64,000 bases of DNA from Cyclobacteriaceae bacterium (GCA_046155095.1 JBJXEB010000112.1:26321-90320), one strand, 5' to 3'. Shown: positions 12,908-44,647, counted from the first letter of the stretch. Translations and numbers: made by a program. Notes: generated by a model from the letters alone, not told the origin.

Positions 12908-14041
12908 ATGAAAAAAATAAAAGTAATTACCATAGTTGGTACCAGGCCAGAGTTAATAAGGCTCTCAAGAGTTATTGCAAAATTGAAGAAAGCAATAGCA
13001 ATTGAACATGTTTTGGTTCATACGGGGCAGAACTATGATTATGAGCTAAATCAAATTTTTTTTGATGATTTAAATTTACCAAAGCCTGATTATTTCCTTG
13101 ATGCTGCAGATCAAACCGCAACAAAAACTATTGGTAAAATACTTATAGCTGTTGACGATTTGTTGTTGAAAGAAAATCCGGATGCCCTATTGGTTCTTGG
13201 AGATACGAATAGCTGTCTGAGTGCGATACCTGCAAAAAAGAGGCATATACCGATCTTTCATATGGAAGCTGGAAACAGATGTTTTGATCAGCGAGTTCCA
13301 GAAGAAACAAATAGAAAGATAGTTGATCACATATCGGATATTAATTTAACTTATTCGGATATAGCTCGTGAATATCTTTTGCGAGAGGGCTTACCAGCAG
13401 ACCGAATTATAAAAACAGGTAGCCCGATGTACGAAGTTCTTGACTTCTATAAGGCAAAAATTGAAAAGTCCTCCATATTAAGCCAACTTAATTTGTTGAA
13501 AGAAAATTATTTTCTTGTAAGTTGTCATCGAGAGGAAAATGTGAATAATGATTCAAGCTTTAAAAACTTGATACAAACACTCAATATTCTTGAATCCAAG
13601 TATCAATTGCCAATTATAGTGTCAACCCATCCAAGGACGCAAAAAATCCTTGAGAAGAATAACTTATCGGGATCGTCATTGATTAGATTCTTGAAGCCTT
13701 TTGGTTTTACTGACTATAACGCATTGCAGATGAGTGCAAAAGCGGTTTTATCCGACAGTGGTACGATCTCAGAAGAATCTTCCATCCTGGGTTTCCCTGC
13801 TTTGAACATAAGGCAGGCACATGAACGACCAGAGGCTATGGAAGAGGCTTCAGTTATGATGACAGGTTTAAATGCAGATCGAATACTTCAGGGAATTGAA
13901 ACTTTAAGTTACGAGATGCAAAGCGGCATAGAATTTAAGCGCGTACAAGACTATTCTATGCCTAATGTTTCTGATAAAGTAATTAGAATTATTGTCTCAT
14001 ACGTTGACTATATAAAAAGAGTTGTATGGCAAAATGAATAA
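12908..14041 (+). CDS. fnlC: FnlC/WbjD/CapG UDP-2-acetamido-2,6-dideoxy-L-talose 2-epimerase
   Basis: GTRPELIRLS, HTGQNYDYEL, HMEAGNRCFD.RVPEETNR, and SDSGTISEES; third gene of the fnlABC order. Confidence 0.88.
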   Translation: MKKIKVITIVGTRPELIRLSRVIAKLKKAIAIEHVLVHTGQNYDYELNQIFFDDLNLPKPDYFLDAADQTATKTIGKILIAVDDLLLKENPDALLVLGDTNSCLSAIPAKKRHIPIFHMEAGNRCFDQRVPEETNRKIVDHISDINLTYSDIAREYLLREGLPADRIIKTGSPMYEVLDFYKAKIEKSSILSQLNLLKENYFLVSCHREENVNNDSSFKNLIQTLNILESKYQLPIIVSTHPRTQKILEKNNLSGSSLIRFLKPFGFTDYNALQMSAKAVLSDSGTISEESSILGFPALNIRQAHERPEAMEEASVMMTGLNADRILQGIETLSYEMQSGIEFKRVQDYSMPNVSDKVIRIIVSYVDYIKRVVWQNE

Positions 14042-14790: not shown

Positions 14791-16149
14791 ATGATTCAAC
14801 TAAAACCATTTGTTGACATCAAAATAAATTGCCCTTCTTGCAAAAATTTAATTGAAGTTGATGATTGGAAAATGACAGGTATGCATGCAATCTGTTCGGG
14901 ATCATGTAAAAACTGTAAAAGAAATTTTATTCAAGAGCTTCCTGTAAATGCAGGTTTGTTCTATCCAGGAATTGTTGACGAAGAATCAGGTAATAGGTGT
15001 GATGATCTGCCATTTGACAATTGGTATCTAAATGGTTTTGTAAAGGCCTTTAATAGCCGAAGTAAAGAAAAAGTTAATATTAAAATTATTGAAAATAAAC
15101 CGCTGGGGACTGGGCCATTGCTTTTGCTCAATACCATCGATGCCACTTATGGCCATGCTTTATATGAATTGTTTAATTGCTCCTATTACCTTACCCGAAG
15201 AGAGTTTGAACTTGTTTTAATTGTTCAGAAAGACCTTCTTTGGCTTGTTCCTGAAAATATTCCTCATATATGGGTTGTCGATATTTCGTTTGGGCAAGCG
15301 ATAAATTGGTACGAGGACCTTGCGGATAAAGTAAAGAAATTAGTTGAAAACAATAGTCACGTATACTTGTGTCGCTCATTTGTTCAAGCAGATTCATCGG
15401 ATTTTGATATTTATGATTATTCAAAGATAAAACCCTTCCCTTTAGAGAAGTGGGACGAATTGTTAACAAAGCCAACGGTTACTTTTATTTGGCGAACAGA
15501 TCGTTTCTGGAAACGGGTACTACCAAAGTGGATAGACAATCGAATAAGCCGAAGGCTTTTTCCTTCGCTACTTAATAGGGTTAGAAACTGGCTTCAGTTT
15601 CAATGGGTTATTCGCTTTTCAGGAGCTTTAAAGTCATCAATCCCCAGCGTTGATTTTGCTATTGCAGGAATGGACAGCCGTGATTTTGCCTTGCCCAAAT
15701 GGATAAAGGATTATCGATATGAAAAACATTCGGACGAAACAGCGCGAGAACAATGCCAGCGGTACGCTAACAGTCACTTAGTAGTAGGATGCAATGGGTC
15801 CTCTTTGTTACTTCCAGGATGTCACGCTGGCGCAGTAGTAAATATAGTTCCAGGAGATCATTGGGCTGTTTCCGCTGGGACTTTTGCTTACCGGATTACG
15901 AGTGTTGGCGATACCCACTTTCGCTATCAGATGGTTCCAGAGGAAGTCCCGATTCAAAGAATAGTAAAAATCATGACTTCAATTTTAAGAGATCGATCTT
16001 ACATTCTTCTCCAGACTTCTTCTCCATGGCGTGATCATAACTCTGACCAAGACTCGTTTGCATGGAGTAATTTCAGATTAAAAGCGTTTAAATTGCTTAA
16101 GTATTTTAAGCCAGATTCGGGATTGATAACTAGGCCAAAGAGTAAGTGA
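14791..16149 (+). CDS. Hypothetical protein: N-terminal CxxC/CxxC zinc ribbon plus possible divergent GT61-like domain
   Basis: CPSC..(x19)..CKNC at the N-terminus; YGHALYE and HLVVGCNGSSLLL...GAVVNIVP resemble GT61/DUF563 motifs. Confidence 0.45.
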   Translation: MIQLKPFVDIKINCPSCKNLIEVDDWKMTGMHAICSGSCKNCKRNFIQELPVNAGLFYPGIVDEESGNRCDDLPFDNWYLNGFVKAFNSRSKEKVNIKIIENKPLGTGPLLLLNTIDATYGHALYELFNCSYYLTRREFELVLIVQKDLLWLVPENIPHIWVVDISFGQAINWYEDLADKVKKLVENNSHVYLCRSFVQADSSDFDIYDYSKIKPFPLEKWDELLTKPTVTFIWRTDRFWKRVLPKWIDNRISRRLFPSLLNRVRNWLQFQWVIRFSGALKSSIPSVDFAIAGMDSRDFALPKWIKDYRYEKHSDETAREQCQRYANSHLVVGCNGSSLLLPGCHAGAVVNIVPGDHWAVSAGTFAYRITSVGDTHFRYQMVPEEVPIQRIVKIMTSILRDRSYILLQTSSPWRDHNSDQDSFAWSNFRLKAFKLLKYFKPDSGLITRPKSK

Positions 16150-16925
16150 GTATGAAACGAATCCGAGTAATCCCCGCCCTATTAATCCAAGATGGTGGCT
16201 TAGTAAAATCCATAAGATTTAAAGATCACAAATATGTAGGCGACCCTATCAACGCAGTAAAAATATTCAACGAGAAGGAAGTTGATGAAATTGTAATACT
16301 CGATATCTCCGCTACGGCAGAAAAGAAAGCCCCCAATATTTCAAGTATTAAGGAAATAGCAAGTGAGGCTTTTATGCCCCTGGGTTATGGTGGGGGAATT
16401 ACAAAGCTGGAAGAAATCAAGGAACTCATAACTGCAGGGGTTGAAAAGGTAATCTTGAACACCAGTGCTTTTGAAAATCCTAAGTTGGTAAGCGAGGGAG
16501 CTAAATATGTAGGCAGCCAAAGCGTGGTTGTTTCCATCGATGTAAAAAAAAATATTTGGGGTAAGTATAAGGTATTCGTTCGAAACGGGACTAAGAATAC
16601 GGATATTGACCCGGCACAGTATGCCCGGCAGATGGAACAAGCAGGAGCAGGAGAGTTATTACTAAATGCAATCGATAAGGATGGTACTTTTAGCGGGTAT
16701 GATGTCGATTTATTAAAGTCGATCAGTTCGATTGTAAACATTCCCGTTGTGGCCATTGGTGGTGCTGCTACGGTTGACGATTTTGCAAAAGCAGTCCAAT
16801 CAGGGGCATCAGCGGTGTCGGCAGGCAGTATGTTTGTATTCCAGCGTCCGCATCGCGCAGTTTTAATCAGCTATCCATCGCAGAAAGAACTAAAAGAAAA
16901 GCTATTTTTGCAAGTTAACAAGTAG
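16146..16925 (+). CDS. hisF: HisF-like cyclase-fold subunit (WbuZ/HisF2/AglZ type)
   Basis: RVIPALLI...LVKS..F, YVGDPINAVKIFNEKEVDE, GYGGGI, and DKDGTFSGYD. Confidence 0.9.
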   Translation: MSMKRIRVIPALLIQDGGLVKSIRFKDHKYVGDPINAVKIFNEKEVDEIVILDISATAEKKAPNISSIKEIASEAFMPLGYGGGITKLEEIKELITAGVEKVILNTSAFENPKLVSEGAKYVGSQSVVVSIDVKKNIWGKYKVFVRNGTKNTDIDPAQYARQMEQAGAGELLLNAIDKDGTFSGYDVDLLKSISSIVNIPVVAIGGAATVDDFAKAVQSGASAVSAGSMFVFQRPHRAVLISYPSQKELKEKLFLQVNK

Positions 16926-16935
16926 TTTGGGATTT

Positions 16936-18078
16936 ATGGTTTTGCATAAAAGTGATCCAAAATATCAGCAGTGCACACTTACAGTAATGGACAACATTGC
17001 CGATCGGGATATTACGTTCGATAAAAAGGGTATTTGCAATTATTATTACGACTACGAAGAGGCAGAGAAAAGCTTAGTTACAGGAACGGCTGGGGAGGAA
17101 AAACTTAAACAATTAGCAAATTCCATAAAAGCAAAAGGTATTGGAAAAAAGTATGATTGCCTGATTGGCTTGAGTGGGGGTGTGGATAGCACGTATGTTG
17201 CGTACTTAGTAAAGAAACTAGGGCTTCGTCCGCTGGCCGTCCATTTAGACAACGGATGGAATTCAGAACTTGCTGTTAAGAACATTGAGAACATTATCAG
17301 CAAATTGAACATTGACCTCTATACATTGGTGGTCAATTGGCAGGAGTTTAAAGATATTCAGCTTTCCTATTTAAAAGCTTCCGTTGTTGACATTGAAGTG
17401 GTCTCTGATCACGCCATTTTTGCAACCATGTATAAGTTGGCCAAGCAGCACAACATTAGCTACATCATCAGCGGAACAAACATCGTTACAGAGCATATCA
17501 TGCCCCCGAGTTGGCTCTATAGGAAAATGGATTTTGATAACCTTAACGATATCCATAATCAATATGGAAAAGTTAAAATCAAAACTTATCCTTATTTTGA
17601 TTTTAAAAAATACGTGTACTATTCTGCTGTTTTGCGGTTAACACCCATTTCTATTCTCAACTATGTTCCGTACAACAAACAGGAAATAAAGCAATTCATA
17701 ACCAAAGAACTCGACTGGCGAGATTACGGTGGTAAGCATTATGAATCTACGTTTACCAAATTTTATCAAGCCTACATTTTACCAGAAAAATTTAAGATCG
17801 ATAAACGCAAAGCCCACCTGTCTACATTAATTTGCTCTGGACAAATAACGAAAGAAGAGGCATTGAAAGAATTGGAACTTCCGTTGTATAAACCAGAAGA
17901 ATTAAAACAAGACATAGAATACGTGCTAAAGAAATTTGGGTGGACGGCAAGTGAATTTGGTGCCATCATGAAGGCAGCGCCACGTAAGCACGAAGAATTT
18001 AAAACGGATTCAACACGAAAACAAAGTTATATGCGCCTTTTGCAGAAGACGCAGAAGCTGCGCAAGGTTTTTAAATGA
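16936..18078 (+). CDS. N-acetyl-sugar amidotransferase (WbuX/WbpG/PseA-like)
   Basis: YDCLIGLSGGVDS PP-loop, HLDNGWNSE, WRDYGGKHYES, and IDKRKAHLS; the ORF track starts at TTG 16927. Confidence 0.88.
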   Translation: MVLHKSDPKYQQCTLTVMDNIADRDITFDKKGICNYYYDYEEAEKSLVTGTAGEEKLKQLANSIKAKGIGKKYDCLIGLSGGVDSTYVAYLVKKLGLRPLAVHLDNGWNSELAVKNIENIISKLNIDLYTLVVNWQEFKDIQLSYLKASVVDIEVVSDHAIFATMYKLAKQHNISYIISGTNIVTEHIMPPSWLYRKMDFDNLNDIHNQYGKVKIKTYPYFDFKKYVYYSAVLRLTPISILNYVPYNKQEIKQFITKELDWRDYGGKHYESTFTKFYQAYILPEKFKIDKRKAHLSTLICSGQITKEEALKELELPLYKPEELKQDIEYVLKKFGWTASEFGAIMKAAPRKHEEFKTDSTRKQSYMRLLQKTQKLRKVFK

Positions 18079-28388: not shown

Positions 28389-29540
28389 ATGAAAGGTAAA
28401 AAAAACATAGTCGTGATTACAGATTGGTTTGCGCCTGGTTATAAAGCAGGTGGCCCCATTCAATCATGTGTTAATTTCTGCATGGCCATGAGGGGTGAAT
28501 ATGAAATTTGTGTGATAACCTCCGATACTGACTTGAACGAAAGTGAACCATACCCAACTATTGAAAGCAACAAATGGAATAAGACATTAATTCCTTCTGT
28601 CAATATTTATTACTTTTCAAAATCTCAATTGAGGTATAGGAAGCTAATGACTGTTATCAATGAAGCAAAGCCTGATTTTATTTACCTAAATCACATGTTT
28701 TCATTTTGGTTTGTAATTGTGCCTTTATGGATGTGGTGGAAAGGTCGCATAAAATCAAAAATGATACTATGCCCAAGAGGGGCCTTGTTTGACAGCGCGA
28801 TGCATCATAAGAAATCATTCGTAAAGAAATTTTTTTTTCTAAAGATTTTTCGTTGGCTTCGTGTTTTTAAAGAGATTAGATTTCACGCAACGAATGAAAA
28901 TGAGAGAACGGCTATAAAACGATATTTCCCAACGGACAAGATTATCGTAGCTAACAATTTTCCGAACCGAATTCAAACTGAATTTACAGGAATCAAAAAG
29001 AGATATGGGCATATAAATGTAATATTTATCGCTCGCATTTTACCAATCAAAAACTTACTATTGGCTATTCAGATTTTAAGCAAAGTAAGAGTATTGGTAA
29101 CTTTTACAATTGTTGGCCCCATTGAAGATGAGCTTTATTGGCAAGAATGCCAAGCTAGCATCAGGCATTTGCCAGAGAATATTGACATTAAATACCTTGG
29201 TGCAAAGAACAACCATGAATTGAATCCTATTTTGAAGCAAAATCACCTCTACCTACTTCCAACTAGAGGAGAGAATTTTGGTCATTCGATTTTTGAGGCG
29301 TTCTTAGCAGGCCGGCCGGTTCTAATTAGTGACCAAACGCCTTGGAGGAATTTAACTGAGCAAAAAATTGGTTGGGACATATCTCTTGATAAAATTGATG
29401 ACTTCGTTAACACTATAGAAATAGCTGGTAATTGGGAGCAAGAAGAATTTGATGAATATGCCTACCTTGCATGGAATTTTGCAAAAGAATTCAATGGCCA
29501 ATCAAATGAAATACGTAGTTACAAAGAGCTTTTTTCGTGA
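28389..29540 (+). CDS. Glycosyltransferase family 4
   Basis: YKAGGPIQS, PRG, RILPIKN, and ENFGHSIFEAFLAGRPVLISDQTPW. Confidence 0.88.
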   Translation: MKGKKNIVVITDWFAPGYKAGGPIQSCVNFCMAMRGEYEICVITSDTDLNESEPYPTIESNKWNKTLIPSVNIYYFSKSQLRYRKLMTVINEAKPDFIYLNHMFSFWFVIVPLWMWWKGRIKSKMILCPRGALFDSAMHHKKSFVKKFFFLKIFRWLRVFKEIRFHATNENERTAIKRYFPTDKIIVANNFPNRIQTEFTGIKKRYGHINVIFIARILPIKNLLLAIQILSKVRVLVTFTIVGPIEDELYWQECQASIRHLPENIDIKYLGAKNNHELNPILKQNHLYLLPTRGENFGHSIFEAFLAGRPVLISDQTPWRNLTEQKIGWDISLDKIDDFVNTIEIAGNWEQEEFDEYAYLAWNFAKEFNGQSNEIRSYKELFS

Positions 29541-30091
29541 GTAAGGTAAAAGTAAATAATGCTTCTTATGTTGCCACTTTAGATATTGGAGCAACAAAGT
29601 TAAAGCAAGTAGTATGGTTGATGCTAAACGGTTTGTTTTTTATAAATCCGTTGAATCCACTCTCTTTTGTTAAAGTAAGCTTACTGCGTTTATTTGGCGC
29701 AAAAGTAGGGAAAGGAGTTTTTATCAAGCCCTCTGTCAGCGTGAAATATCCTTGGAAGCTATGCATAGGGAGTAATGTTTGGATAGGAGAAAACGTTTGG
29801 ATAGATAATCTATGCCAAGTAATGATTGGAGATAATGTTTGCATTTCTCAAGGTGCATTGCTATTGACCGGAAGCCACGATCATACTAAGCCTACATTTG
29901 ATTTCATTGCTAACGAAATCGTTTTAGAAGAAGGGGTATGGATTGGTGCCAAGGCAGTAGTAGGTGGTGGCGTTACCTGCAAGTCTCATAGTATTTTAGG
30001 AATTAATTCCGTTGCCGAAACAGACTTAAATGCTTATACGATATACAAAGGAAACCCCGCGGTACCAGTCATTGAGAGAAAAATATTTTAA
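29537..30091 (+). CDS. WcaF-like hexapeptide acetyltransferase
   Basis: LLRLFGAKVG, IKPSVSVKYPWKL, ISQGA.L.TGSHD, and GNPA. Confidence 0.88.
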   Translation: MSKVKVNNASYVATLDIGATKLKQVVWLMLNGLFFINPLNPLSFVKVSLLRLFGAKVGKGVFIKPSVSVKYPWKLCIGSNVWIGENVWIDNLCQVMIGDNVCISQGALLLTGSHDHTKPTFDFIANEIVLEEGVWIGAKAVVGGGVTCKSHSILGINSVAETDLNAYTIYKGNPAVPVIERKIF

Positions 30092-30099: not shown

Positions 30100-30789
30100 A
30101 TGAAATCAGTTTTTAAAAAGGTCGTTTACTTCTTTTCTTATTTTTTATCAAAAATACCTACATCAAAACCTTCACTCTTTTTTATTAAGCTAGGATATGC
30201 AATTAGGAGCGAATCGTTGTTTTATAAAACCAACGTTAGAGAATTTAAAGATAGACTGGAAATGCACAGCTACCTTTCCACTGACTTTACTGAAAATCAA
30301 AAAATTCAATTTCTTGAATTTGGTGTTTACAAGGGTCAAACTTTCGCCCTTTGGATGGGCAACAATAGAAATCCTCACTCTCGTTTTTTTGGATTTGATA
30401 CTTTTACCGGCTTGCCCGAAAGTTGGGGAAGATGGAAAAAAGGCAGCTTTTCCGCCAATGGAAAATTGCCAGATTTGGCTGATGAAAGAGGTGTCTTTTT
30501 GGTAGGGTTAATTCAAGATACGTTACCACTTAACATTGGTAAGATTAACCCGGATGAGAATAAGGTAATTCATATTGATGTCGATATATATAGTGCCACG
30601 CTAGTTACTTTAATTAACTTACTACCGATTCTAAAGAAAGGAGATATTATCATTTTTGATGATTTTTTTACCGTCATGGTTGCTGATCATGCGTTTAAGG
30701 CTTTTTTTGACTTTTTGGCTACTTATACATTTTCCTATAGGCCGTTATTCAAATGCAGAAGAGGTCACTTTGTGATAGAAGTTGCCTAA
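30100..30789 (+). CDS. TylF/MycF/NovP-related O-methyltransferase
   Basis: LEFGVYKG, GFDTFTGLPE, IHIDVDIYSAT, and IIIFDD. Confidence 0.85.
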   Translation: MKSVFKKVVYFFSYFLSKIPTSKPSLFFIKLGYAIRSESLFYKTNVREFKDRLEMHSYLSTDFTENQKIQFLEFGVYKGQTFALWMGNNRNPHSRFFGFDTFTGLPESWGRWKKGSFSANGKLPDLADERGVFLVGLIQDTLPLNIGKINPDENKVIHIDVDIYSATLVTLINLLPILKKGDIIIFDDFFTVMVADHAFKAFFDFLATYTFSYRPLFKCRRGHFVIEVA

Positions 30790-30804: not shown

Positions 30805-32751
30805 ATGAACAAAATAATTATCAGTCATAAACAGATTAGGAGCGCTCTTCTAATAAGAAAAGTAGAAGAGAAATTCTTGGAGCTTTTTTCCCATGGAAAA
30901 CTAAACGGAACAGTGCATACCTGTGTAGGTCAAGAGTTTTCTGCTATAGCCTTTGCAGGTCAACTAAAGAAGAGCGATTTCATATTCTCTAATCACCGCT
31001 GCCACGGCCATTATATTTCTTTCACCAATGATTTAAGGGGATTGCTGGCAGAGTTAATGGGCAAGAAGACAGGAACGAGTGGAGGAGTAGGCAGTAGCCA
31101 GCATCTATGCAATGGCAATTTTTTTTCAAATGGCATACAAGGAGGCATTGTACCAGTGGCGGCAGGCTATGCCTTGGCAAATAAATTAAAAGAGAATGGA
31201 GCTATTGGCGTAGTTTATATTGGTGATGGGACTCTTGGCGAAGGTACATTGTATGAAACAATGAACATCATTTCCAAATGGCAAATTCCGCTATTAATTG
31301 TTTGTGAAAATAATTTCTACGCACAATCCACACCACAAAATGTAAATCTAGCAGGCGATATTTTAAAAAGATCAGAGGCATTTGATATTAAGACATTTAA
31401 AGGCGATACATGGAATCCTGACATACTTATCGATGAAGCAAAGAATGCTATTGATTTTGTGAGGCAAAGTGGTCAGCCTGGCTTTTTCTTAGTTGAGACC
31501 TATAGACTAAATGCACACTCGAAAGGTGATGATGATAGAAAGCCTGAAGAAGTGCAATCTTACGCGGATAGAGATTTTCTTAACATCTTTCAGAAAGAAT
31601 CCCCTAATTATTACGATAACTATTTGGAGAGTATCACCGCAGAGATTGATTCTTACATAAAGGACATCCTTAGCGAAGATGACCTGTCTTTAGATGAATA
31701 CTATTTAAAGGACAAACTGATTGCTAATCGTAAATGGACGCCCATTGAACCTATCAACAAAAGGCAAGTAGAACTAATCAATGATTTCTTCCATGAGCAA
31801 ATGAACCTAAACGATAAAATTATATTTATCGGTGAAGATATTTTGTCTCCTTATGGAGGCGCATTTAAAGTGGCAAAGGGTCTTTCAGCTAAAAAACCAG
31901 ATCGTGTTTTTTCCACGCCCATATCTGAATCGGCCATCATGGGAATCTCAAATGGACTTGCTTTAAATGGATTTAGACCATTTGCAGAGATCATGTTTGG
32001 CGATTTTATAACGCTGGCTTTTGACCAAATCGTTAACCATGCTTCTAAGTTTTACCATATCTTCAATCATCAAGTAAAGTGTCCCGTTGTACTGCGAACG
32101 CCAATGGGCGGTAGAAGAGGATATGGCCCCACGCATTCACAAACACTCGATAAGTTTTTGATTGGTATTGATAACGTGATTACGGTTGCTGTCAACACAT
32201 TGATTGATCCTGGACTGGTTTTTAATTCGGTCTTAAAACAGGAACACCCTGTTATTATCATCGAGAATAAAGTTGACTATGGAAAAAAAATACTTGCTCA
32301 AAAGAGTAGCAACTTTATCTATGAACGGAATGAAGACGAATTTCCGATCGTAAGAATTCGACCTACATACTCTACTCCAGATATAACTATAGTAGCGTAC
32401 GGTGGCATGGCTGATATTGTTGCCTCAGCGCTGAAAGATATTTTTGTTGAGACTGATCTCAAGCCTGAACTTATTGTATTTACACAAATCTCACCTTTTA
32501 ATCCTGAGTTGATTATTGAATCGGTAATAGTAACAGGCCGCTTAGTGATCGTTGAAGAAGGAAGTGCGGCTGGCGGTATTGGAAGTGAAGTCATAGCTTC
32601 TGTAATGGAGCAAATGAATCAACCTGTACAAGTAAAACGAATTGCAGCATTGCCAGTACCGATTCCATCTGTAAAATCGTTAGAACACATAGTTTTGCCT
32701 GAAAGAAACAGAATTATAGAGGAGATCAACCAACACTTTGTGATAAGATAA
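30805..32751 (+). CDS. Fused alpha/beta TPP-dependent 2-oxoacid-dehydrogenase E1-like protein
   Basis: GTVHTCVGQE, SNHRCHGH, TPP motif GDGTLGEG...ENNFYA, YRLNAHSKGDD; beta part GEDI, TPISE, EIMFGDF, and YGPTHSQ. Confidence 0.9.
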   Translation: MNKIIISHKQIRSALLIRKVEEKFLELFSHGKLNGTVHTCVGQEFSAIAFAGQLKKSDFIFSNHRCHGHYISFTNDLRGLLAELMGKKTGTSGGVGSSQHLCNGNFFSNGIQGGIVPVAAGYALANKLKENGAIGVVYIGDGTLGEGTLYETMNIISKWQIPLLIVCENNFYAQSTPQNVNLAGDILKRSEAFDIKTFKGDTWNPDILIDEAKNAIDFVRQSGQPGFFLVETYRLNAHSKGDDDRKPEEVQSYADRDFLNIFQKESPNYYDNYLESITAEIDSYIKDILSEDDLSLDEYYLKDKLIANRKWTPIEPINKRQVELINDFFHEQMNLNDKIIFIGEDILSPYGGAFKVAKGLSAKKPDRVFSTPISESAIMGISNGLALNGFRPFAEIMFGDFITLAFDQIVNHASKFYHIFNHQVKCPVVLRTPMGGRRGYGPTHSQTLDKFLIGIDNVITVAVNTLIDPGLVFNSVLKQEHPVIIIENKVDYGKKILAQKSSNFIYERNEDEFPIVRIRPTYSTPDITIVAYGGMADIVASALKDIFVETDLKPELIVFTQISPFNPELIIESVIVTGRLVIVEEGSAAGGIGSEVIASVMEQMNQPVQVKRIAALPVPIPSVKSLEHIVLPERNRIIEEINQHFVIR

Positions 32752-32752
32752 T

Positions 32753-34072
32753 ATGAAAGTGCTGCAAGAAATAACTGTTCCCCAAGAATCTGTCAACGAT
32801 CAAAGTTTGATTGTTCTTGAATTATATTTTAAGAACGGTGATAAGGTAGCAAAGGGAGCATTGATTGCTGAATTAGAAACTTCTAAAACCACCGTAACCG
32901 TAGAGGCTGAACAAGACGGCTATGTCCAATACTTCTGTAATGTGGGGGATGACTTAGAAGTAAATTCAATTATTGCCAGAATTTCTGACGAGATTCCTGT
33001 AATTGTGTTAGAAGAGAACAAGATTAACTTACAAAAGCAAAACGTGGTAGCACCCCACTATTCATCTCAGCATTCAATAAAAGAAACGATATTTTCAAAA
33101 AAAGCATTGCTCTTGATGGTTAAGTCGAATATTCAAAAGACTGCCTTTGTTGGGATGGATTTTGTAAGTGAAAAAGATGTCGAAAATATCTTGGGCGGGA
33201 GTACAAAGACAAAAAAAGTAGCCCCCATTAGCGCAAAAGACAGACGAGAAAGCGAAAATGTTGTTGATGATATTTCGAAAGTACAATTAGAAAAAGTAAA
33301 ATCATTCAAGCATAAAGAAATTGGGTACTTAAGCAGCGTACAGTCTGCAGGACTCGTAAGCGTTATTAATGCTATGGTAGAAGTAGAAGGTGTAATAGAT
33401 TACATCAACCAATATACACAATACTTCAAAAATTCTCTATTACCAATTGTTGTATATGAATGCGGTCGGTTATTGCAAAAGTATCCAGCCTTCAATGCCT
33501 ATTTTAACAACGAAAACATTGCCTACTATAAACAGGTTCATGTTGGCTTTGCTGTTGATATGGGCAAGGGACTGAAAGTTTTGAAAATCGCAAATACAGA
33601 AAACAAATCGATAAGAGAAATTGAACAAGAAATCTTTCAACTTTCCAATGACTATCTGGATGAAAAAATTAAAACGGATGTGTTAACCGATATCACGTTT
33701 ACGATCACAGACTTATCAGGCGAAGATGTTTTCTCGTTTACACCCCTTATCAACATGAAGAATTCTGCTATCCTAGGAATTTCTTCGATTGATCAAAAAC
33801 TAAAACGATGTGTGTTGAGCCTTGCCTTTGACCACAGGGTAACCGAAGGTAAGAATGCATCTGTTTTTCTATCAGAACTGAAACAACGTATAGAGTCATA
33901 TCGCTCAAAATTGTTTGATGCAGGCCTTCAATCGAAGTACTTATCAGGCATAAAATGTTATAAGTGTATGAAAAGATTAACGGAAGACCTTTCAGATGCG
34001 GGGTTCGCAAAGTGCATTACTCCGCTAGGTGAAGAGGCTTACATTTGCCAAGCTTGTTTTAAAGGGTTTTAA
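32753..34072 (+). CDS. E2-like lipoyl-domain acyltransferase with C-terminal Cys4 extension
   Basis: Lipoyl motif ELETSK (Lys45), catalytic-domain TITDLSG and FDHRVTEG, and tail CYKC...CQAC. Confidence 0.85.
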   Translation: MKVLQEITVPQESVNDQSLIVLELYFKNGDKVAKGALIAELETSKTTVTVEAEQDGYVQYFCNVGDDLEVNSIIARISDEIPVIVLEENKINLQKQNVVAPHYSSQHSIKETIFSKKALLLMVKSNIQKTAFVGMDFVSEKDVENILGGSTKTKKVAPISAKDRRESENVVDDISKVQLEKVKSFKHKEIGYLSSVQSAGLVSVINAMVEVEGVIDYINQYTQYFKNSLLPIVVYECGRLLQKYPAFNAYFNNENIAYYKQVHVGFAVDMGKGLKVLKIANTENKSIREIEQEIFQLSNDYLDEKIKTDVLTDITFTITDLSGEDVFSFTPLINMKNSAILGISSIDQKLKRCVLSLAFDHRVTEGKNASVFLSELKQRIESYRSKLFDAGLQSKYLSGIKCYKCMKRLTEDLSDAGFAKCITPLGEEAYICQACFKGF

Positions 34073-34075
34073 AAA

Positions 34076-34831
34076 ATGGAATCACTCATAAAACCGATTA
34101 TTGCCGAGTTCTTAAAAGTAGATCAGTCTACGATAGTGGGAAGCACCATTATTGATAGATCAGCAGTGAAAGGTTCTATTTTAGTGCATAGGATGTACGG
34201 TGCCATGGCCAACGCAGGTGTTGTTGTAACTGACTACACCGCAATAAAAACATATGGTCAGTTACTACAAAGATTGAATCCAACTAATAATGAAAATAGC
34301 CCTTTCGTAAATGACATTGAGACAACTGTCGCTTTAAATAGTGAAGGTGTTTCCTCCATCGGTATTGATATAGAACACATAAAGAATATGCCTGCTTGTA
34401 ATGATTATCGGCAAGACGAATTTTATAAGAAAAATTTTTCTCCTCTTGAGATTTCATATTGCGTTCTTCAACCCAATCCGATCATTTCATTTATAGGATT
34501 GTTTGCCGCAAAAGAAGCAATTGCGAAGGCCGACAACACGTATAAGAAAATCCCTTTTGATCAAATAGAGATTGATCATGACCAACTAGGCAAACCGTTT
34601 TTTAAGGAGTTCGATATTTCCATTTCACATGTGGAAGATTTTGCTGTAGCTGTTGCGGTATGGCTGCCGAAAAACACTATCTCTCAATCAGAACTGCCCA
34701 AATCGATGGCCATTGGCTTAAAAGAAATTGATTTGCTTAAAAGGAAGTTAAAATCCTATTCTATAGTCTCGATCATTTCTTTATTAATTGCTTTGGCCGC
34801 CATTTCTATTAGTTTTTTCTTCTTTCGATAG
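34076..34831 (+). CDS. ACP-like domain fused to AcpS-type 4'-phosphopantetheinyl transferase and C-terminal TM helix
   Basis: GIDIE, FAAKEAIAKA, GKP and ISISH AcpS motifs. The N-terminal ~70 aa helical domain has GS34IL at the ACP-Ser position, and the protein ends in a hydrophobic tail. Confidence 0.75.
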   Translation: MESLIKPIIAEFLKVDQSTIVGSTIIDRSAVKGSILVHRMYGAMANAGVVVTDYTAIKTYGQLLQRLNPTNNENSPFVNDIETTVALNSEGVSSIGIDIEHIKNMPACNDYRQDEFYKKNFSPLEISYCVLQPNPIISFIGLFAAKEAIAKADNTYKKIPFDQIEIDHDQLGKPFFKEFDISISHVEDFAVAVAVWLPKNTISQSELPKSMAIGLKEIDLLKRKLKSYSIVSIISLLIALAAISISFFFFR

Positions 34832-34854
34832 AGCGCTATTTGCCTAATAACGAG

Positions 34855-35604
34855 ATGAAAATTTCCCTCCTCACCGTTTCCTTTAATTCAGCCTCAACCA
34901 TCCAAGACACCATCGAATCAATTCGTTCCCAAGATTATAAAAACATTGAATACATCGCGGTGGATGGCAATTCAAAAGATGGAACGGTAGAGATCATTAA
35001 ATCGTACGATTCATTTATCAGTAAATGGATAAGCGAACCCGACAAAGGTATTTATGATGCCATGAACAAAGCTATTCAACTAGCAACGGGCGATGTGGTG
35101 GGGATTTTGAACTCCGATGATTTCTATTCGACTAACACTATCATATCACAAGTGGCCGAAGCTTTTACGGATGAAAAAGTAGATGTCGTTTTTGGAGACC
35201 TCGTTTTTGTTGACCCAAACAATCTTAATAAAATAGTTCGCAAGTATTCGTCCGCCAAATGGCATCCAACTAAATTTGCCCGCGGGTTTATGCCCGCACA
35301 CCCAACAGTTTTTATCAGAAGAAAGTATTATGAGCAATTTGGATTGTTTAAGACTGATTATAAAATTGCAGCAGACTATGAGCTGTTAATTCGTTTTCTG
35401 TATGTTCATAAATTGAAATACAAATACCTTCCCATCACTATGGTGAAGATGAGAAGGGGAGGGGTGAGCTCCAGAAGTTGGAGGAGCAATTTTATCTTGA
35501 ACGATGAGATAATTCGTGCCTGTAGGGAGAACGGCATTAAGACCAACGTGTTCAAGGTGTATCCAAAATATTTTACCAAGCTTTTTGAACTTTTCACATC
35601 CTGA
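34855..35604 (+). CDS. Glycosyltransferase family 2 (WcaE-like)
   Basis: DGNSKDGT, SEPDKGIYDAMNK, LNSDD, PAHPT, and AADYE. Confidence 0.9.
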   Translation: MKISLLTVSFNSASTIQDTIESIRSQDYKNIEYIAVDGNSKDGTVEIIKSYDSFISKWISEPDKGIYDAMNKAIQLATGDVVGILNSDDFYSTNTIISQVAEAFTDEKVDVVFGDLVFVDPNNLNKIVRKYSSAKWHPTKFARGFMPAHPTVFIRRKYYEQFGLFKTDYKIAADYELLIRFLYVHKLKYKYLPITMVKMRRGGVSSRSWRSNFILNDEIIRACRENGIKTNVFKVYPKYFTKLFELFTS

Positions 35605-38091: not shown

Positions 38092-38729
38092 TACAAGATA
38101 TCGCAATTTACGGGGCAGGAGGATTGGGCAGAGAAATGGCCTTGATGATTCAGCAAATCAATAAAGTTAGCAATCAGTGGCACATCATTGGGTTTTTTGA
38201 TGATGGGCTAAATCGAAACAATAAAGTTGACAATTGGATAGTATTGGGTGGGCTTACGGAGGCAAATGTATGGGACAGAAAATTAGCCTTGGTTTTGGCC
38301 ATAGCAGATTCTCATGTTCGTTTTAAATTGGCAGAGCAATTGATCAATCCGCAGTTGAGTTTCCCCACATTGATACACCCATCGTGCAATACGGGTAGCG
38401 AACAAAACCAATTTGGCAAAGGCGTACTTCTTGCGGCTAACGTGGTGTTGACTACGAATATTAAACTTGAAGATTTTGTGATCGTCAATTTAGCAACAAC
38501 GATTGGGCATGATGTTACGATTGGTAAATGTTCTTCTATTATGCCAGGTTGTAGCATTTCAGGGAATGTAAAAATAGGGGAGAAGAATCAAATTGGCACA
38601 GGTGCGCGATTCTTGCAAAATATTTCAATCGGTGACGACTCTGTTGTAGGTGCTGGTGCAGTGGTAACAAAAAGTTTTCCTGCTAATAGTAGGCTGATAG
38701 GTGTGCCAGCTACTAATTTTGAGAAATGA
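38088..38729 (+). CDS. PglD/NeuD-like sugar N-acetyltransferase
   Basis: IYGAGGLGRE, GFFDD, TLIHP, IGHD, hexapeptide repeats, and GVPA. Confidence 0.88.
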   Translation: MIQDIAIYGAGGLGREMALMIQQINKVSNQWHIIGFFDDGLNRNNKVDNWIVLGGLTEANVWDRKLALVLAIADSHVRFKLAEQLINPQLSFPTLIHPSCNTGSEQNQFGKGVLLAANVVLTTNIKLEDFVIVNLATTIGHDVTIGKCSSIMPGCSISGNVKIGEKNQIGTGARFLQNISIGDDSVVGAGAVVTKSFPANSRLIGVPATNFEK

Positions 38730-39271
38730 ATTGGAGAGAAAACTTACCAGCTCTAAAATTTCTTGGAATATTCCTTGGTGTCTATCTGGCGGGCAATTTA
38801 CTGTATGGCTTTTACATAGAATTGAATTACCCATTGGCAGATCATGCTACGATTTGGGTATCCCATCAATCGTCCGTACTCATGAATTTGTTATTTGGCA
38901 CGCAAACGACATCGGTGATGAGTCCCGTTAGCCCCGTTTCTTTGATTTTGGAAAACGGAAAAGTAATCCTTCGAATTTATGAGGGCTGTAATGGCCTCAA
39001 CGTAATGATTGTGTTTGTCGCCTTTATCCTTGCCTTTAGTGGCCCTTCAAAACGAGGTGGCATTTTTATCTTAATCGGACTGGTTGCAATCCATTTGGCA
39101 AATCTTTTTAGGATCACCCTATTGTTTTGGGTGGCGAAGCATTACGAAAGCTACTTTTATTACGTCCACAAATATGTTTTTACGGCCGCGCTCTATGTAA
39201 TTGTGTTAGGGCTATGGTGGATTTGGGTATACAGAATCATGAAGGCAAAAGCCACCCAGTATGAAGGATAG
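38726..39271 (+). CDS. xrtF: Exosortase family protein XrtF
   Basis: IYEGCNGLNV (catalytic Cys), NLFRI (Arg), and HKYVF (His) in a multi-TM protein. Confidence 0.85.
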   Translation: MNWRENLPALKFLGIFLGVYLAGNLLYGFYIELNYPLADHATIWVSHQSSVLMNLLFGTQTTSVMSPVSPVSLILENGKVILRIYEGCNGLNVMIVFVAFILAFSGPSKRGGIFILIGLVAIHLANLFRITLLFWVAKHYESYFYYVHKYVFTAALYVIVLGLWWIWVYRIMKAKATQYEG

Positions 39272-39695
39272 AACTCGAATCGTTCTAATTCTTATTTGCG
39301 GGCTTGCTGCTCTTGCCCTTTTATATGTTTTTCAACGTACTAGCTACGGATTGATTTTGTTCCAGGCACTTGGGTTGACCCCCAATGAAAATTTGATTTT
39401 TATAATCAACAAAACATTACGATTACTGGCTAATGATTTTGTTTGTGTAGTTATGATTTTTTCTATTTTCAAAGAAAAGAATTATCGGCAGGTGACATTG
39501 GCTGTATTTCTTATCGAGTTTGTAGTGATTTTGCCATTTTACTTTTTGCTTAAATTAAATTTAGAAGGAAGCAGCGAACTATCGTCTCCCTTGCTTTCAT
39601 TTATTCACAGGTTGATTGTAAACCCCACCTTAATGATCTTGACGGGAATGGCACTGGCGTACCAAAAATTTGTTTTTCCTACTTTGCGAAAATAA
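39261..39695 (+). CDS. Exosortase F system-associated membrane protein
   Basis: NKTLRLLAND and SFIHRLIVNP motifs, four TM segments, directly downstream of xrtF. Confidence 0.75.
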   Translation: MKDRTRIVLILICGLAALALLYVFQRTSYGLILFQALGLTPNENLIFIINKTLRLLANDFVCVVMIFSIFKEKNYRQVTLAVFLIEFVVILPFYFLLKLNLEGSSELSSPLLSFIHRLIVNPTLMILTGMALAYQKFVFPTLRK

Positions 39696-40879: not shown

Positions 40880-43800
40880 ATGAGATCATTCAAAGGCGTT
40901 CTAATTGGAAGTTTATTAATCTTGGTTAGCCACCTCAGCATTGCTCAGAGATTTGCAGTTGCTTCAACTGGATGGAGTTCGACTAGCACTTGGTCGGCTT
41001 CAAGAGGAGGGGCATCGGGTGCTTCTGTTCCAACTAGCTCAGATGATGTTTATTTGGATGGGTTCAGTGTAATTTTAGCTGGTGGTACCAATGGTGCGTG
41101 CAATAACTTATATGTTCGTGACGTAACTAACAGCATTAGAGGTGGAGCAGGCACAAACACCATTACAATTTCTGGAGAGCTTGCAGTTCTAGACAACTCC
41201 GATGCGTATGTTATTCCAGTAAATTCAGTCATTCAAAGTTCATCTTCTTTAACTTTCATTTTTATAGCAAATGCTCAGGATGCTGTAAATGTTGATGGTT
41301 GGAGCACATCTGCTTCAATAAGAAAAGTTACATTTAATCCAGGTATTGGTAATACCATTACTCTACCCAATTTTGCAGTTGCTGCCTCGGGTGTATTGAC
41401 AGTTTCATCCGGTACATTGAATTTGACTGGTAACCTACAAGGTGCATCAAGTGCATCAATTTTAGTTAATTCAGGGAGTACATTGCTTGTTTCAAGTGGT
41501 AGTATTAGCGGAAATGGAACTAATTCAACAAAGTTCCCCTCTCTAACGGTCAATGGTACTTTGACTAGTCAGAATAATACAACATCTTTTGTAAACGCTG
41601 ATGTTATTGCGCTTAACTCAGGTAGTGTTTTTAATGTAGGTTATAATGGTTCCAATCAAACTGAAGCTTGGTGGTATCAAAGCATTTCCCCAAGTTCACA
41701 GACAATTGATCCTGCATCAACTTTTAATTTCAACTCTTCTACATCGCAGAATGTTTTTGCTCAATCTTACGGTAATCTTATATTAAGTGGTTCGTCAACG
41801 ACTAAGACTGTTTCTGGAGCAGGTTCTATAAATATCAAAGGAAATCTTTCATTCAGCAATACAAACATTACCTTCACAGTATCTTCTTCCAATCAAGTTA
41901 TCTTTGATGGGACTGGCTCTCAAGGCATCAATGGCGGTGGAACAGCCAATTTCAATGGAGGCCTTCAAGTAAACAAACCTACGGGCATTCTTCTGCTTGC
42001 CCAGAATGTTACCGTTCAGAATGGACTAACCATCGCATCGGGGGGTACTATAGATTTGGGATCGAGTACGTTCACACTATCTGGCAATTTGTCGAATGAT
42101 GGTACCTTTGCTCCTACCAATAGTACAACCATTAATGCTGGAACAACAGCTATTTCAGGTAGCTCTACTACTTCATTTAATAATCTAACCATTAGTCCAT
42201 CTGGGTCGCTATCTGCTCCCAATGGAAATGTCAACATCGCAGGCGATTTTGCAAATAATGGAACCTTCACAGCCAATGCAGGTACATTGGTATTCAATGG
42301 AAGTGCTGCACAGTCTATTACGGGAACTATCTCTGCTAACAACATTACTGTGTCAAATCCTGCTGGTGTCAACAACAACGGAACGCTCACTTTGAACGGC
42401 ATTTTGAATTTGACGGGCACTGGTGCATTCAATGCTAACGGAGCGGGTGCTGGCACATTAACCTTGGCCTCTAACGGGCTTTCTTCTAGTGGCATGATCG
42501 GGGCGCTTAGTATCCCCACTAATTTTAGTGGCACTGTAACGGTCCAGCGCTTTATCAATGGGCCAGGCGATTGGCGTTATTTTTCCATGCCCATCACCAA
42601 TGGAACTGTTGGAACTTGGAAGGCAGCGTTTCCCACTACGGGTAGTTTTTCGGATCCTAGCCCAAATGGGGTCAACGGGGTGATAGATCAAACAGCGGCA
42701 TCCATTTACTATTATGATGCTCCTACCCAAGCCTACGTGGCTGTGGGCAGCGGTATCTCAACTGGTTCTACTACACTTTTCAATACGGTTGGTTATTCGG
42801 CATATACTTATCTGACAGGTAATTTTACAATCAATGCCACGGGCTCCATCGCAAAAGGCACGGTCAATATTCCATTGAATACAACGTCCCCCGGCTGGAA
42901 TCTTGTGCCCAATCCATATCCATCTGCAATAGACTGGAACCTGATGAATCGCACAGGCCTCAGCAATACAATGAACTTAAGGATAACCAACGGAACATTT
43001 GCTACGTATGTGGCTGGTGCTGGCACTTGCACGGGTTGTGGGTTCAACACCAATTGGAGGGGAGAAGTACCAATTGGCCAATCTTTTTGGATAAATTCTA
43101 CCAGTGCCACCAATTTAGGGTTGACAGAGGCAGTAAAAACAACCACGCAACCCACTTTTGTAAGAGAGGCAACAGCAGAAAATTTTGTTCGCATTACATT
43201 GAACTCACCCACTCAAATAGACGATGCTGTAGTAATGTTTAAGCCAGGTGCCTCTGCTAGTTTTGACCCTGCCTATGATGGACCAAAAAGAAAGAACGGA
43301 AATTATATTTCCTCGCTAGGAAGGAACAGTTACATGAATATATCTAGCTACACGAGCGATCCTTTAGCAGACATGGCTATTAATGTATTACCCACACTGG
43401 CTTGCCAAGGTGCAGTAAAGCTTAAAGTGTCGGATGTGCCAGCGGGCAACTATTCCCTAAAATTTACTGAGCTAGAATCGATGAGCTTGGGTTACGCGAT
43501 TCTTTTGAAGGATAATTTTTTAGGGACTCAGCGTACGGTAAGCAACAGCATGGTTTATTCTTTTGATGTGACGGCTGATCCCACTTCATTTGGAGATACT
43601 CGCTTTGAGTTACAGTTTTCTGCTCCCTCCATTTCAACATTAAGTTCACAGTCGTTTACGGCCAATAGCACGTGCTCATCGAGTAATATTGGTTTCCAAC
43701 TTAGCAATTCGCAGCGTGGTATTAACTATCAATTTTTTATGGGCACTAATTCAGTAACCCCAGAAGTATTGGGGAACGATGGAGTTATTTCCTTTTTTGT

Positions 43801-44647
43801 CGACAAAAGCGCGTTGAGCATTGGTGCTAACTCGATTACTGTAAAAGCAACTACCCCAGGCGGGTGTTCCACCATGAATTTTCCTAATATCATCACCTAT
43901 AAATATGATAAGGTATCCGAGGTTTCCAATGTAGTGAATGCTACAAGTTGTGGCCCTGGATCGGTCTCTCTAAAAGTATCCGGAGCTCCATCCGATGGTA
44001 GTTATAGGTGGTATGGTTCCCCAAATAGTACAACTCCTATTGTTGGTGCCACTCAAGATACATTTACAGCTAAGTTAGATTCCACCAAGTGGTTTTATGT
44101 GGCTGCTGTAAATGCGTTGGGTTGCGAAAGTGTTGTAAGAGCTAAAGTAATTGCAGAAGTGGTTAATCTAGTAGTACCCTTGGTAACAATGACTGGAAAC
44201 ATGTTGAGCGTACAAAAAGGCTTGCCAAATCAACAATGGTACAAAGACGGTAATGCAATCAGTGGTGGAACCACTCCAACATTGGATGTTACCAGCTCAG
44301 GTAGCTATAGCGTAACAACAACTGACAAAGGATGCAGTAAGTCATCGGATAACATTGTAATGACAATCACCGCTATTGATGATGGCGTTGAATACGAAAT
44401 AAAGGCTTACCCTAATCCAGTATCTAGCCTTCTGTTTATAAAGATACCATCAACGCAAATTACATCTCTAAAATCAATAGTTATGTTTGATGGCAAGGGG
44501 AGTGTAGTTACATCTAGTGATTCTAATTCTAGTCTTTTAGATGTAGGAGTGAAAACTATCGATATGAGCGAGCAACCAATGGGGTTATACTTAATCAAAT
44601 TTTTAATTGGAAGCGAAGTAAAATCAATTAAGATACTTAAGAGATGA
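40880..44647 (+). CDS. Large T9SS type-A CTD-containing surface protein (beta-helix-like repeats, Ig-like domains)
   Basis: Signal peptide ending LSIA|Q; G/N/T/S-rich repeats; Ig-like YRWY..P; C-terminal AYPNPV...GLYLIK...KILKR CTD. Confidence 0.88.
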   Translation: MRSFKGVLIGSLLILVSHLSIAQRFAVASTGWSSTSTWSASRGGASGASVPTSSDDVYLDGFSVILAGGTNGACNNLYVRDVTNSIRGGAGTNTITISGELAVLDNSDAYVIPVNSVIQSSSSLTFIFIANAQDAVNVDGWSTSASIRKVTFNPGIGNTITLPNFAVAASGVLTVSSGTLNLTGNLQGASSASILVNSGSTLLVSSGSISGNGTNSTKFPSLTVNGTLTSQNNTTSFVNADVIALNSGSVFNVGYNGSNQTEAWWYQSISPSSQTIDPASTFNFNSSTSQNVFAQSYGNLILSGSSTTKTVSGAGSINIKGNLSFSNTNITFTVSSSNQVIFDGTGSQGINGGGTANFNGGLQVNKPTGILLLAQNVTVQNGLTIASGGTIDLGSSTFTLSGNLSNDGTFAPTNSTTINAGTTAISGSSTTSFNNLTISPSGSLSAPNGNVNIAGDFANNGTFTANAGTLVFNGSAAQSITGTISANNITVSNPAGVNNNGTLTLNGILNLTGTGAFNANGAGAGTLTLASNGLSSSGMIGALSIPTNFSGTVTVQRFINGPGDWRYFSMPITNGTVGTWKAAFPTTGSFSDPSPNGVNGVIDQTAASIYYYDAPTQAYVAVGSGISTGSTTLFNTVGYSAYTYLTGNFTINATGSIAKGTVNIPLNTTSPGWNLVPNPYPSAIDWNLMNRTGLSNTMNLRITNGTFATYVAGAGTCTGCGFNTNWRGEVPIGQSFWINSTSATNLGLTEAVKTTTQPTFVREATAENFVRITLNSPTQIDDAVVMFKPGASASFDPAYDGPKRKNGNYISSLGRNSYMNISSYTSDPLADMAINVLPTLACQGAVKLKVSDVPAGNYSLKFTELESMSLGYAILLKDNFLGTQRTVSNSMVYSFDVTADPTSFGDTRFELQFSAPSISTLSSQSFTANSTCSSSNIGFQLSNSQRGINYQFFMGTNSVTPEVLGNDGVISFFVDKSALSIGANSITVKATTPGGCSTMNFPNIITYKYDKVSEVSNVVNATSCGPGSVSLKVSGAPSDGSYRWYGSPNSTTPIVGATQDTFTAKLDSTKWFYVAAVNALGCESVVRAKVIAEVVNLVVPLVTMTGNMLSVQKGLPNQQWYKDGNAISGGTTPTLDVTSSGSYSVTTTDKGCSKSSDNIVMTITAIDDGVEYEIKAYPNPVSSLLFIKIPSTQITSLKSIVMFDGKGSVVTSSDSNSSLLDVGVKTIDMSEQPMGLYLIKFLIGSEVKSIKILKR

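Follow-up and report, generated by a model that had tools for sequence, protein, structure and literature searches.

A candidate thiamine diphosphate- and lipoate-dependent acyl-carrier cassette in a polysaccharide locus of a Cyclobacteriaceae bacterium

Carrier-dependent acylation of glycans and other polymers is known from several bacterial systems, including tetronate in Vibrio cholerae O1 (RfbK-O), D-alanylation by DltA-D, and the left-handed beta-helix (LbH) transferases LpxA/LpxD, whose donors are loaded acyl carrier proteins (acyl-ACP). A further route to a loaded carrier has been characterised for QncN/L/M, in which the two-carbon unit of a ketose phosphate becomes glycolyl-S-ACP, and both RenH/RenI (PMC13249901) and SclQ1-4 (PMC6335953) have been assigned to it. 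In this work, we analysed a stretch of 64,000 nucleotides from a Cyclobacteriaceae bacterium (GCA_046155095.1, JBJXEB010000112.1:26321-90320; hereafter the window), which carries a cassette of three genes encoding a fused thiamine diphosphate (ThDP)-dependent E1, a lipoyl-E2, and an ACP-fold domain joined to an AcpS-type phosphopantetheinyl transferase (PPTase) and a membrane helix. Sequence comparison makes it likely, in our judgement, that this cassette is a ThDP- and lipoate-dependent acyl-ACP loader of the QncN/QncL/QncM type, serving glycan acylation.

The initial annotation of the window knew of no characterised polysaccharide pathway with this architecture, and our full-text literature search agreed, returning no paper on an E1/E2/ACP set in a glycan locus. 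Sequence analysis gives the domain content of the cassette, its catalytic residues, its clade membership, its obligatory linkage to a carrier and its glycan context. As judged from these data, what is new with respect to Qnc/Nap/Scl/Ren enzymology is the glycan context, the fusion of ACP, AcpS and transmembrane helix (ACP::AcpS), and an E2 bearing a Cys4 ribbon. Below, contigs of the window's genome are designated by C numbers and related loci by L numbers.

Composition and affinities of the cassette

Three tightly packed genes between a TylF methyltransferase and a family 2 glycosyltransferase (GT2), encoding a fused E1, a lipoyl-E2 and an ACP-like/AcpS/transmembrane fusion with no E3 gene adjacent, had been described in the initial annotation, and the open reading frames (ORFs) and Pfam domains bear out this description (Table 1). 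The three ORFs lie on the + strand, separated by gaps of 1 and 3 bases. A scan of 50 window ORFs, including every gene adjoining the cassette, revealed no nonribosomal peptide synthetase (NRPS) or polyketide synthase (PKS) domain. Further, no E3 gene occurs within the window; Lpd homologues are found on contigs C128 and C8 of the genome, and LipA on C106.

The alpha part of the fused E1 covers approximately residues 1-300 and the beta part residues 318-648; the GDG...NN motif for ThDP and Mg is retained, together with the two histidines for reductive acylation (AHSKGDD, THSQ). The E2 consists of a lipoyl domain (Lys45 in ETSKT), a segment resembling the peripheral subunit-binding domain (PSBD), an acyltransferase core (His361 in DHRVTEG) and a C-terminal Cys4 ribbon (C402/C405...C432/C435). 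A lipoyl-E2 with Lys45 and His361, along with a dedicated carrier, is kept in 37/37 orthologous loci. The ribbon is present in all 37 of these E2 orthologues as well as in L098 and L086, always with ACP::AcpS partners, and is absent from five of five E2s having a free-standing ACP, so that ribbon and AcpS fusion coincide in 40 of 40 cases vs 0 of 5. RenI and the Streptomyces E2 lack the ribbon. It probably docks the AcpS-bearing partner.

Both enzymes score below the NCBIfam cut-offs, the best matches of E1 being to the alpha and beta subunits of pyruvate dehydrogenase (PDH) E1 (198.8 vs 393.85 and 179.9 vs 321, respectively) and that of E2 reaching 126.2 vs 449. The closest solved structures are 1ik6, 1um9, 3exe and 1w85 for E1, and 3rqc and 1eaa for E2. 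The genome has its own PDH (contigs C87/C98/C47), three fused E1s (C108, C125 and C6) and two further E2s, and identity between the cassette proteins and these paralogs, five of which were compared with E1, does not exceed 33%. Among annotated E1 relatives of the plasmid collection, RenH from the renieramycin cluster, also an alpha-beta fusion, comes first with 43.7% identity over 99% of the length, followed by a Streptomyces set arranged as NRPS-MbtH-ACP-E1a-E1b-E2.

In a maximum-likelihood tree, the window E1, fused representatives sampled from a search of 1.8 billion proteins, RenH and the NRPS-linked Streptomyces pair form a single clade with a support of 100 in the Shimodaira-Hasegawa-like approximate likelihood ratio test (SH-aLRT), and the genome's own PDH, the fused E1s resembling branched-chain 2-oxoacid dehydrogenase (BCKDH), and three E1s from canonical E1-E2 operons, of which two include lpdA, fall outside it. 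At E<1e-30, E1 clusters number roughly 1,500. The E2 tree displays the same split, with RenI and other ACP-linked E2s in the clade (100/99) and housekeeping E2s outside. In both trees, Qnc-type enzymes are represented by RenH/RenI and the Streptomyces plasmid set as proxies, the QncN/L sequences themselves being absent. Furthermore, the E2 shares derived features with RenI, namely ETSK rather than ETDK at the lipoyl lysine, TDLS rather than SNLG in the core, and a 14-residue deletion.

Clustering with housekeeping PDH or BCKDH, which the initial annotation had named as a point that would speak against its proposal, was examined in both trees; E1 and E2 group instead with the Ren/NRPS-linked (Qnc-type) enzymes, and a housekeeping paralog was rejected on both. 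These placements bear on the idea that an ordinary dehydrogenase paralog makes acyl-coenzyme A (acyl-CoA) for the acetyltransferases of the locus, the third gene encoding an unrelated PPTase. We consider this very improbable: the PDH/BCKDH domain content and a cellular E3 would fit, but E1 and E2 lie outside all housekeeping groups with 100% support, a carrier lies near every E2-containing relative examined, the E2 ribbon co-occurs with the AcpS fusion, and the PSBD motif is altered.

Regarding the acyl group, five motifs are common to the window E1 and RenH (GSQH, GxQG, YAQST, HSKGDD and RGYGPTHSQ), with Gln at three hydrophobic positions where classical E1s have Met, Val and Met. We take these positions, going by PDH E1 structures, to line the ThDP pocket. 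Across 131 clade representatives, the motifs have frequencies of 37-92%; 0/5 paralogs of this genome have them. Because of homology and this polar pocket, glycolyl is our favoured candidate, a tentative choice that we would put somewhat below an even chance; another short acyl group is possible, if rather doubtful.

The same machine could accept a 2-oxoacid (pyruvate, 2-oxobutyrate, hydroxypyruvate or a branched one) or acetoin as donor, leaving acetyl, propionyl or another short acyl group on the carrier. The ThDP motif and both histidines are hallmarks of 2-oxoacid/acetoin E1s, PDH/acetoin-type E1s are the sister group of the E1 clade in the tree, the best NCBIfam matches, below cut-off as they are, belong to PDH, and the clade is diverse, so that the donor may vary by branch. 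We nevertheless regard such a donor as unlikely, though deserving serious attention: a private route to acetyl-ACP would serve no evident purpose when acetyl-CoA is freely available, the classical Met, Val and Met of the pocket are replaced by Gln in motifs common to RenH, and the nearest relatives with an assigned role form glycolyl.

The third protein comprises an ACP-fold domain (residues 1-71, with Ser34), a disordered linker (72-89), the AcpS domain (90-197), an amphipathic helix and a transmembrane helix (228-250, hydropathy up to 2.65 over 19 residues). In an AlphaFold2 model of the whole protein (predicted local distance difference test, pLDDT, 87.5), the ACP domain, disordered linker, AcpS fold and a long C-terminal helix are recognised. 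A model of the N-terminal domain (pLDDT 85) places Ser34 at the start of a helix (34-46), and its top 50 Foldseek matches are all ACPs (TM-score 0.59-0.70); in a comparison of the family profile of this domain with PDB sequences, ACPs account for three of six matches (best E=0.16), with Ser34 on the serine of DSL (2ehs). More than 380 homologues of the protein were found. Ser34 and the Mg/CoA-binding D98, E147 and K151 of the AcpS domain show no variation across 25/25 aligned homologues, the motif S-(I/V)-x-x-(H/R)-R-(M/L)-(Y/F) surrounds Ser34 in all 115 full-length ones, and 114 of these 115 have a C-terminal hydrophobic 19-mer. Sequence and model thus support the N-terminal domain as an ACP-fold carrier, with the invariant Ser34 as putative phosphopantetheine site.

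The AcpS domain is above cut-off for PF01648 (45.1 bits) and TIGR00556 (58.3 bits), and Foldseek relates it to AcpS structures (E=4e-8), with the PPTase domain of a fungal type I fatty acid synthase (FAS; 2wat) as top match; the ACP::AcpS protein is probably trimeric. PF01648 has two matches in the genome, the other lying at C126:8170-8379 in a 221-residue frame. No stand-alone enzyme of AcpS size was detected in the genome; therefore, the AcpS domain of the cassette is the only AcpS-type PPTase there.

Distribution and more distant relatives

The neighbourhood search suggested by the initial annotation places the cassette in glycan loci wherever it was found, with a WcaF-family gene upstream. 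It occurs in 42 Bacteroidota loci, mostly of Chitinophagaceae and including those of the culturable Niastella populi CCTCC AB 208238 (L004), Ferruginibacter sp. SUN002 (L011) and Pollutibacter soli JS81 (L024), in the order GT4 - WcaF - (0-2.5 kb) - E1 - E2 - ACP::AcpS - GT2 (GT4, family 4 glycosyltransferase), and WcaF lies upstream of E1 in 32/32 related loci having both genes on the contig, with a gap of less than 100 bp in 19. The cassette is rare: an ACP-domain model matched 1/201 genomes of the window's family, 2/401 across the phylum, and 1/151 in a second family. By identity of PDH E1 beta, Chitinophagaceae genomes are at a 'same class' distance from that of the window.

GT2 comes immediately after WcaF in 15 of 20 own-family genomes lacking the cassette; therefore, the TylF-like gene, E1, E2 and the carrier gene represent an optional insert of 4.7 kb between the two. 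The cassette-less order, unk427-GT4-GT4-WcaF-GT2-SDR-WecA (SDR, short-chain dehydrogenase/reductase), is visible in parts of several own-family loci. The window GT4 shares 39-51% identity with its counterpart upstream of the cassette in Chitinophagaceae vs 28-36% with the GT4 of cassette-less own-family loci, and both GT4 and WcaF are placed in trees with the cassette-linked Chitinophagaceae copies (splits of 99 SH-aLRT). Conversely, the window GT2 shows 60-64% identity to the closest cassette-less own-family copies vs 41-57% to the cassette-linked copies of Chitinophagaceae. We read this pattern as acquisition of a GT4-WcaF-E1-E2-carrier block by recombination into a resident scaffold. The three-gene module of the initial annotation is real; rather than a stand-alone island, it is an optional insert in a conserved GT4-WcaF-GT2 scaffold and apparently moved with GT4 and WcaF.

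One copy stands apart in the genome assembled from a metagenome and labelled 'delta proteobacterium' (L005:5776-9046), where E1 is recovered in three tblastn pieces and E2 and the carrier gene are approximately 950 bp apart. Decay of the copy or an assembly error may account for this, and the taxonomic label may stem from mis-binning.

Beyond these orthologues, every E2-containing relative examined encodes a carrier protein at a distance of no more than a few genes from E1/E2. For instance, in L082, unknown proteins, of which one matches GNAT weakly and below threshold, come after E1-E2-ACP (PP-binding), and GT4 and a polysaccharide deacetylase lie next to the set; E1-E2-ACP (PP-binding) is located near EpsI in a Terriglobia genome (L084); and L089 has an ACP upstream. 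Among the ribbon-bearing relatives, L086 encodes E1, an E2 fragment with the ribbon, and an ACPS-domain protein with an N-terminal extension of 82 residues in an O-antigen locus, and L098 is arranged as E1-E2(ribbon)-ACP::AcpS-Hexapep. In L096 (7762-13329), whose E1 is a close relative of RenH in the tree and which is not NRPS-linked, an ORF of 80 residues and E1 face an E2-MBOAT-unknown series on the opposite strand, with DctP transporters; this locus looks like a Dlt-like variant of the E1/E2 loader.

A further arrangement is found in L081 (regions 6775-7869, P0290, and 4812-6794), a nonulosonic-acid cluster (NeuB, CTP_transf_3, DegT, SDR) that contains a fused E1 of the same clade and lacks E2 and ACP. 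The neighbour of this E1 is a protein of 364 residues in which a PglD/NeuD LbH N-acyltransferase is fused to a lipoyl domain (ESSKT) and a PSBD-like segment; going by its domains, it amounts to an E2 with a sugar acyltransferase in place of the catalytic core. At the sequence level, we found no more direct link than this arrangement between sugar acylation and the E1 clade. At least 220 proteins make up the lipoyl-LbH fusion family, all annotated only as NeuD-family acetyltransferases.

These relatives bear on two further explanations. In the first, E1 would act as a carboligase of the AviB1/AviB2 or YerE kind that attaches a two-carbon branch to a keto-sugar, with E2 and carrier as accessories. 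E1-like proteins without an E2 do make branched sugars in the avilamycin and aldgamycin pathways, and 4,6-dehydratase-type SDRs are present in the locus. However, the lipoyl-E2 and the carrier, which have no role in carboligation, accompany E1 in 37/37 orthologous loci, and even in L081, with no E2, a lipoyl domain persists as a fusion with an N-acyltransferase; carboligation is the least probable of the alternatives weighed here. A C-branching role was rejected on the constant presence of lipoyl-E2 and carrier.

In the second, the acyl-carrier would not donate to a sugar but would itself be an intermediate or primer tethered to the membrane: the co-transferred GT4 might glycosylate a hydroxyacyl group on it, for instance, or the unit might be destined for a lipid. 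In support, co-variation with the cassette is clearer for GT4 than for WcaF, 114/115 carrier homologues have a membrane anchor, and the WcaF comparison identified no dedicated acyl-ACP transferase. We know of no precedent for such a primer, however, and acyl transfer is favoured by relatives from other phyla, in which E1/E2/ACP is accompanied by an acyltransferase of the LbH, GNAT-like or MBOAT kind; we consider the primer explanation improbable.

The surrounding locus

The cassette is part of a polysaccharide locus of approximately 40 kb on a single strand, with several GT2 and GT4 genes, DegT aminotransferases, initiating transferases of the WecA and Bac_transf types, and an XrtF exosortase. 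The SDRs of the locus include 4,6-dehydratase-type members. The L-FucNAc (N-acetyl-L-fucosamine) genes FnlA/B/C and the WbuX/HisF amidotransferase genes of the same locus suggest an acetamidino sugar of the L-FucNAc/FucNAm type in the repeat unit.

Table 1. Features of the window discussed in the text, with positions counted from its first nucleotide.
Feature	Position	Strand	Assignment and remarks
FnlA/FnlB/FnlC-like trio and HisF-like/WbuX amidotransferase pair	10773-14041 and 16146-18078		Trio: Polysacc_synt_2, CapF-like, UDP-GlcNAc 2-epimerase
GT4 glycosyltransferase	28389..29540	+	Pfam Glycos_transf_1; co-varies with the cassette
WcaF-family LbH O-acyltransferase	29537..30091	+	NCBIfam NF007797, 207.5 bits vs cut-off 192
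TylF-like methyltransferase	30100..30789	+	Pfam TylF, Methyltransf_24; variable passenger between WcaF and E1
Fused ThDP-dependent E1, 648 aa	30805..32751	+	Pfam E1_dh, Transket_pyr, Transketolase_C
Lipoyl-E2, 439 aa	32753..34072	+	Pfam Biotin_lipoyl, 2-oxoacid_dh
ACP-fold, AcpS and membrane-anchor protein, 251 aa	34076..34831	+	Pfam ACPS at residues 94-193
GT2 glycosyltransferase	34840..35604	+	Pfam Glycos_transf_2; downstream boundary of the insert
XrtF exosortase and next ORF	38726-39695		TIGR04128, 115.6 bits vs cut-off 90; end of polysaccharide operon

The position between WcaF and E1 is occupied by a TylF-like gene in the window, L014 and L019 only. In eight Chitinophagaceae loci (L013, L022, L027, L032, L034, L035, L037 and L039), an ORF of approximately 370 residues is found there instead, and the one of the eight that was scanned (L013, 5627-6733) encodes an Acyl_transf_3 (OafA-type) membrane acyltransferase. 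At the other end of the locus, the ORF after XrtF matches the model of an XrtF-associated membrane protein below cut-off (27.2 vs 35 bits), and a protein of 1255 residues with a C-terminal sorting domain of the type IX secretion system lies beyond this region (40880-44647).

Proposed acyl loading and comparison with known systems

Under the preferred reading of the cassette as an acyl-ACP loader, we infer each chemical step, the acyl identity and the final acceptor as follows. The AcpS domain, probably as a trimer, would attach CoA-derived phosphopantetheine to Ser34 in the N-terminal ACP domain of its own polypeptide, and the C-terminal helix would hold the holo-carrier at the cytoplasmic face of the membrane. 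The fused E1 would bind a ketose phosphate, another alpha-hydroxyketone or a 2-oxoacid, forming (di)hydroxyethyl-ThDP, and would then reductively acylate lipoyl-Lys45 of E2. Through His361, the E2 core would pass the lipoyl-bound acyl group to the thiol of the carrier rather than to CoA, and the cellular Lpd (E3) would re-oxidise the lipoyl arm. Once the acyl group is on the carrier, an acyltransferase of the locus would hand it on to one of the sugars in the lipid-linked repeat unit. For this last step, the strongest candidate, though still a weak one as unloader of the carrier, is the adjacent and co-transferred WcaF-like LbH enzyme; the LbH fold can use acyl-ACP, as in LpxA/LpxD.

Several observations weigh against this reading. 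The members in glycan loci are known from sequence alone, and RenH/RenI were themselves assigned by homology only. The N-terminal domain (residues 1-85) gives no match to Pfam PP-binding (PF00550) even at E<=1, and the context of its serine is GSI, not DSL. The PSBD-like segment of E2 lacks the canonical GxxGR motif, which makes the recruitment of E3 uncertain. Further, the E1 clade is broad (34-59% identity), so several donors are possible, and the sequence does not give the donor. No dedicated transferase for unloading acyl-ACP was identified: WcaF homologues (53-64% identity) occur in approximately 30 of the 201 own-family genomes without the cassette, and a search for a fixed difference between cassette-linked and cassette-less WcaF proteins, as expected from a changed acyl donor, found just K171/Q and a 4-residue indel separating the two sets, which is unconvincing.

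More broadly, the relatives may belong to an unannotated and widespread class in which lipoate-dependent carrier loaders, in place of acyl-CoA, provide glycolyl-type hydroxyacyl groups to envelope glycans, with a membrane-tethered, self-priming ACP::AcpS protein docking on a Zn-ribbon E2 in the subfamily of the cassette, and with sister variants of nonulosonic-acid clusters in which the lipoyl arm is fused to LbH N-acyltransferases; we offer this class as a conjecture, possible rather than expected. If it is true, the lipoyl-LbH variants could explain N-glycolyl and N-glyceroyl sugars of unknown genetic basis, such as those of Tannerella forsythia (PMC5378307). That paper mentions no E1 or transketolase genes, and no named Tannerella member is present among 120 listed lipoyl-LbH fusion proteins.

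The question is of interest since acyl decorations of O-antigens, capsules and exopolysaccharides shape antigenicity, recognition by phages and the immune system, and the properties of the polymers. Should the loader hold true, glycans would be acylated by a third route, besides those using acyl-CoA and ATP-dependent ligases, in which a ThDP/lipoyl E1/E2 pair places a unit of central metabolism on a private carrier; chemistry known only from tetrahydroisoquinoline antibiotics would be extended to cell-envelope biology, and uncommon substituents of glycans, glycolyl or methoxyacetyl for example, would gain marker genes. A self-priming, membrane-anchored carrier is, in addition, compact and could be useful in engineering. 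Cassette-less loci with the GT4-WcaF-GT2 scaffold constitute natural controls, and the question is therefore directly testable.

The carrier, membrane-anchored and fused to its own activating enzyme, suggests a mode of glycan decoration in bacteria that has yet to be described. The cassette has in common with Qnc, Nap (NapB/NapD), Scl and Ren the ThDP-binding, pyrimidine-binding, transketolase-C, lipoyl, E2 acyltransferase and ACP domains, as well as a PPTase in the case of scl; it differs from them in its polysaccharide locus, with no NRPS or PKS domain among the ORFs scanned, in the fusion of ACP to AcpS and a membrane helix, and in the Cys4 ribbon. The pattern of fusions also varies, the cassette joining E1 alpha to E1 beta, whereas in Qnc E1 beta is fused to E2 and in Scl all components (SclQ1-4 and SclP) are separate.

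With the dehydrogenases of pyruvate, branched-chain 2-oxoacids, 2-oxoglutarate (OGDH) and acetoin (AoDH), the cassette shares folds, ThDP and lipoate, and the catalytic His and Lys; unlike them, it scores below the NCBIfam cut-offs, has at most 33% identity to the genome's own complexes, lies outside their clades, has no adjacent E3, and carries a PSBD-like segment without GxxGR. The presumed acyl acceptor is a carrier protein in the cassette and CoA in these dehydrogenases. In contrast to sugar C-branching enzymes of the YerE/AviB type, which act without lipoyl-E2 or carrier, both are kept in 37/37 loci. As in fungal FAS, a PPTase of AcpS fold with conserved Asp, Glu and Lys stands on the same polypeptide as its ACP substrate, but here in a bacterial protein of 251 residues made up only of ACP, AcpS and a transmembrane helix. 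Like the RfbK-O, Dlt and Lpx systems, the cassette has a dedicated carrier in an envelope-glycan locus and would rely on unloading of the LbH or MBOAT type, L096 pairing E1/E2 with an MBOAT protein; whereas those systems load the carrier via an ATP-dependent ligase, the cassette would do so via a ThDP/lipoyl E1/E2.

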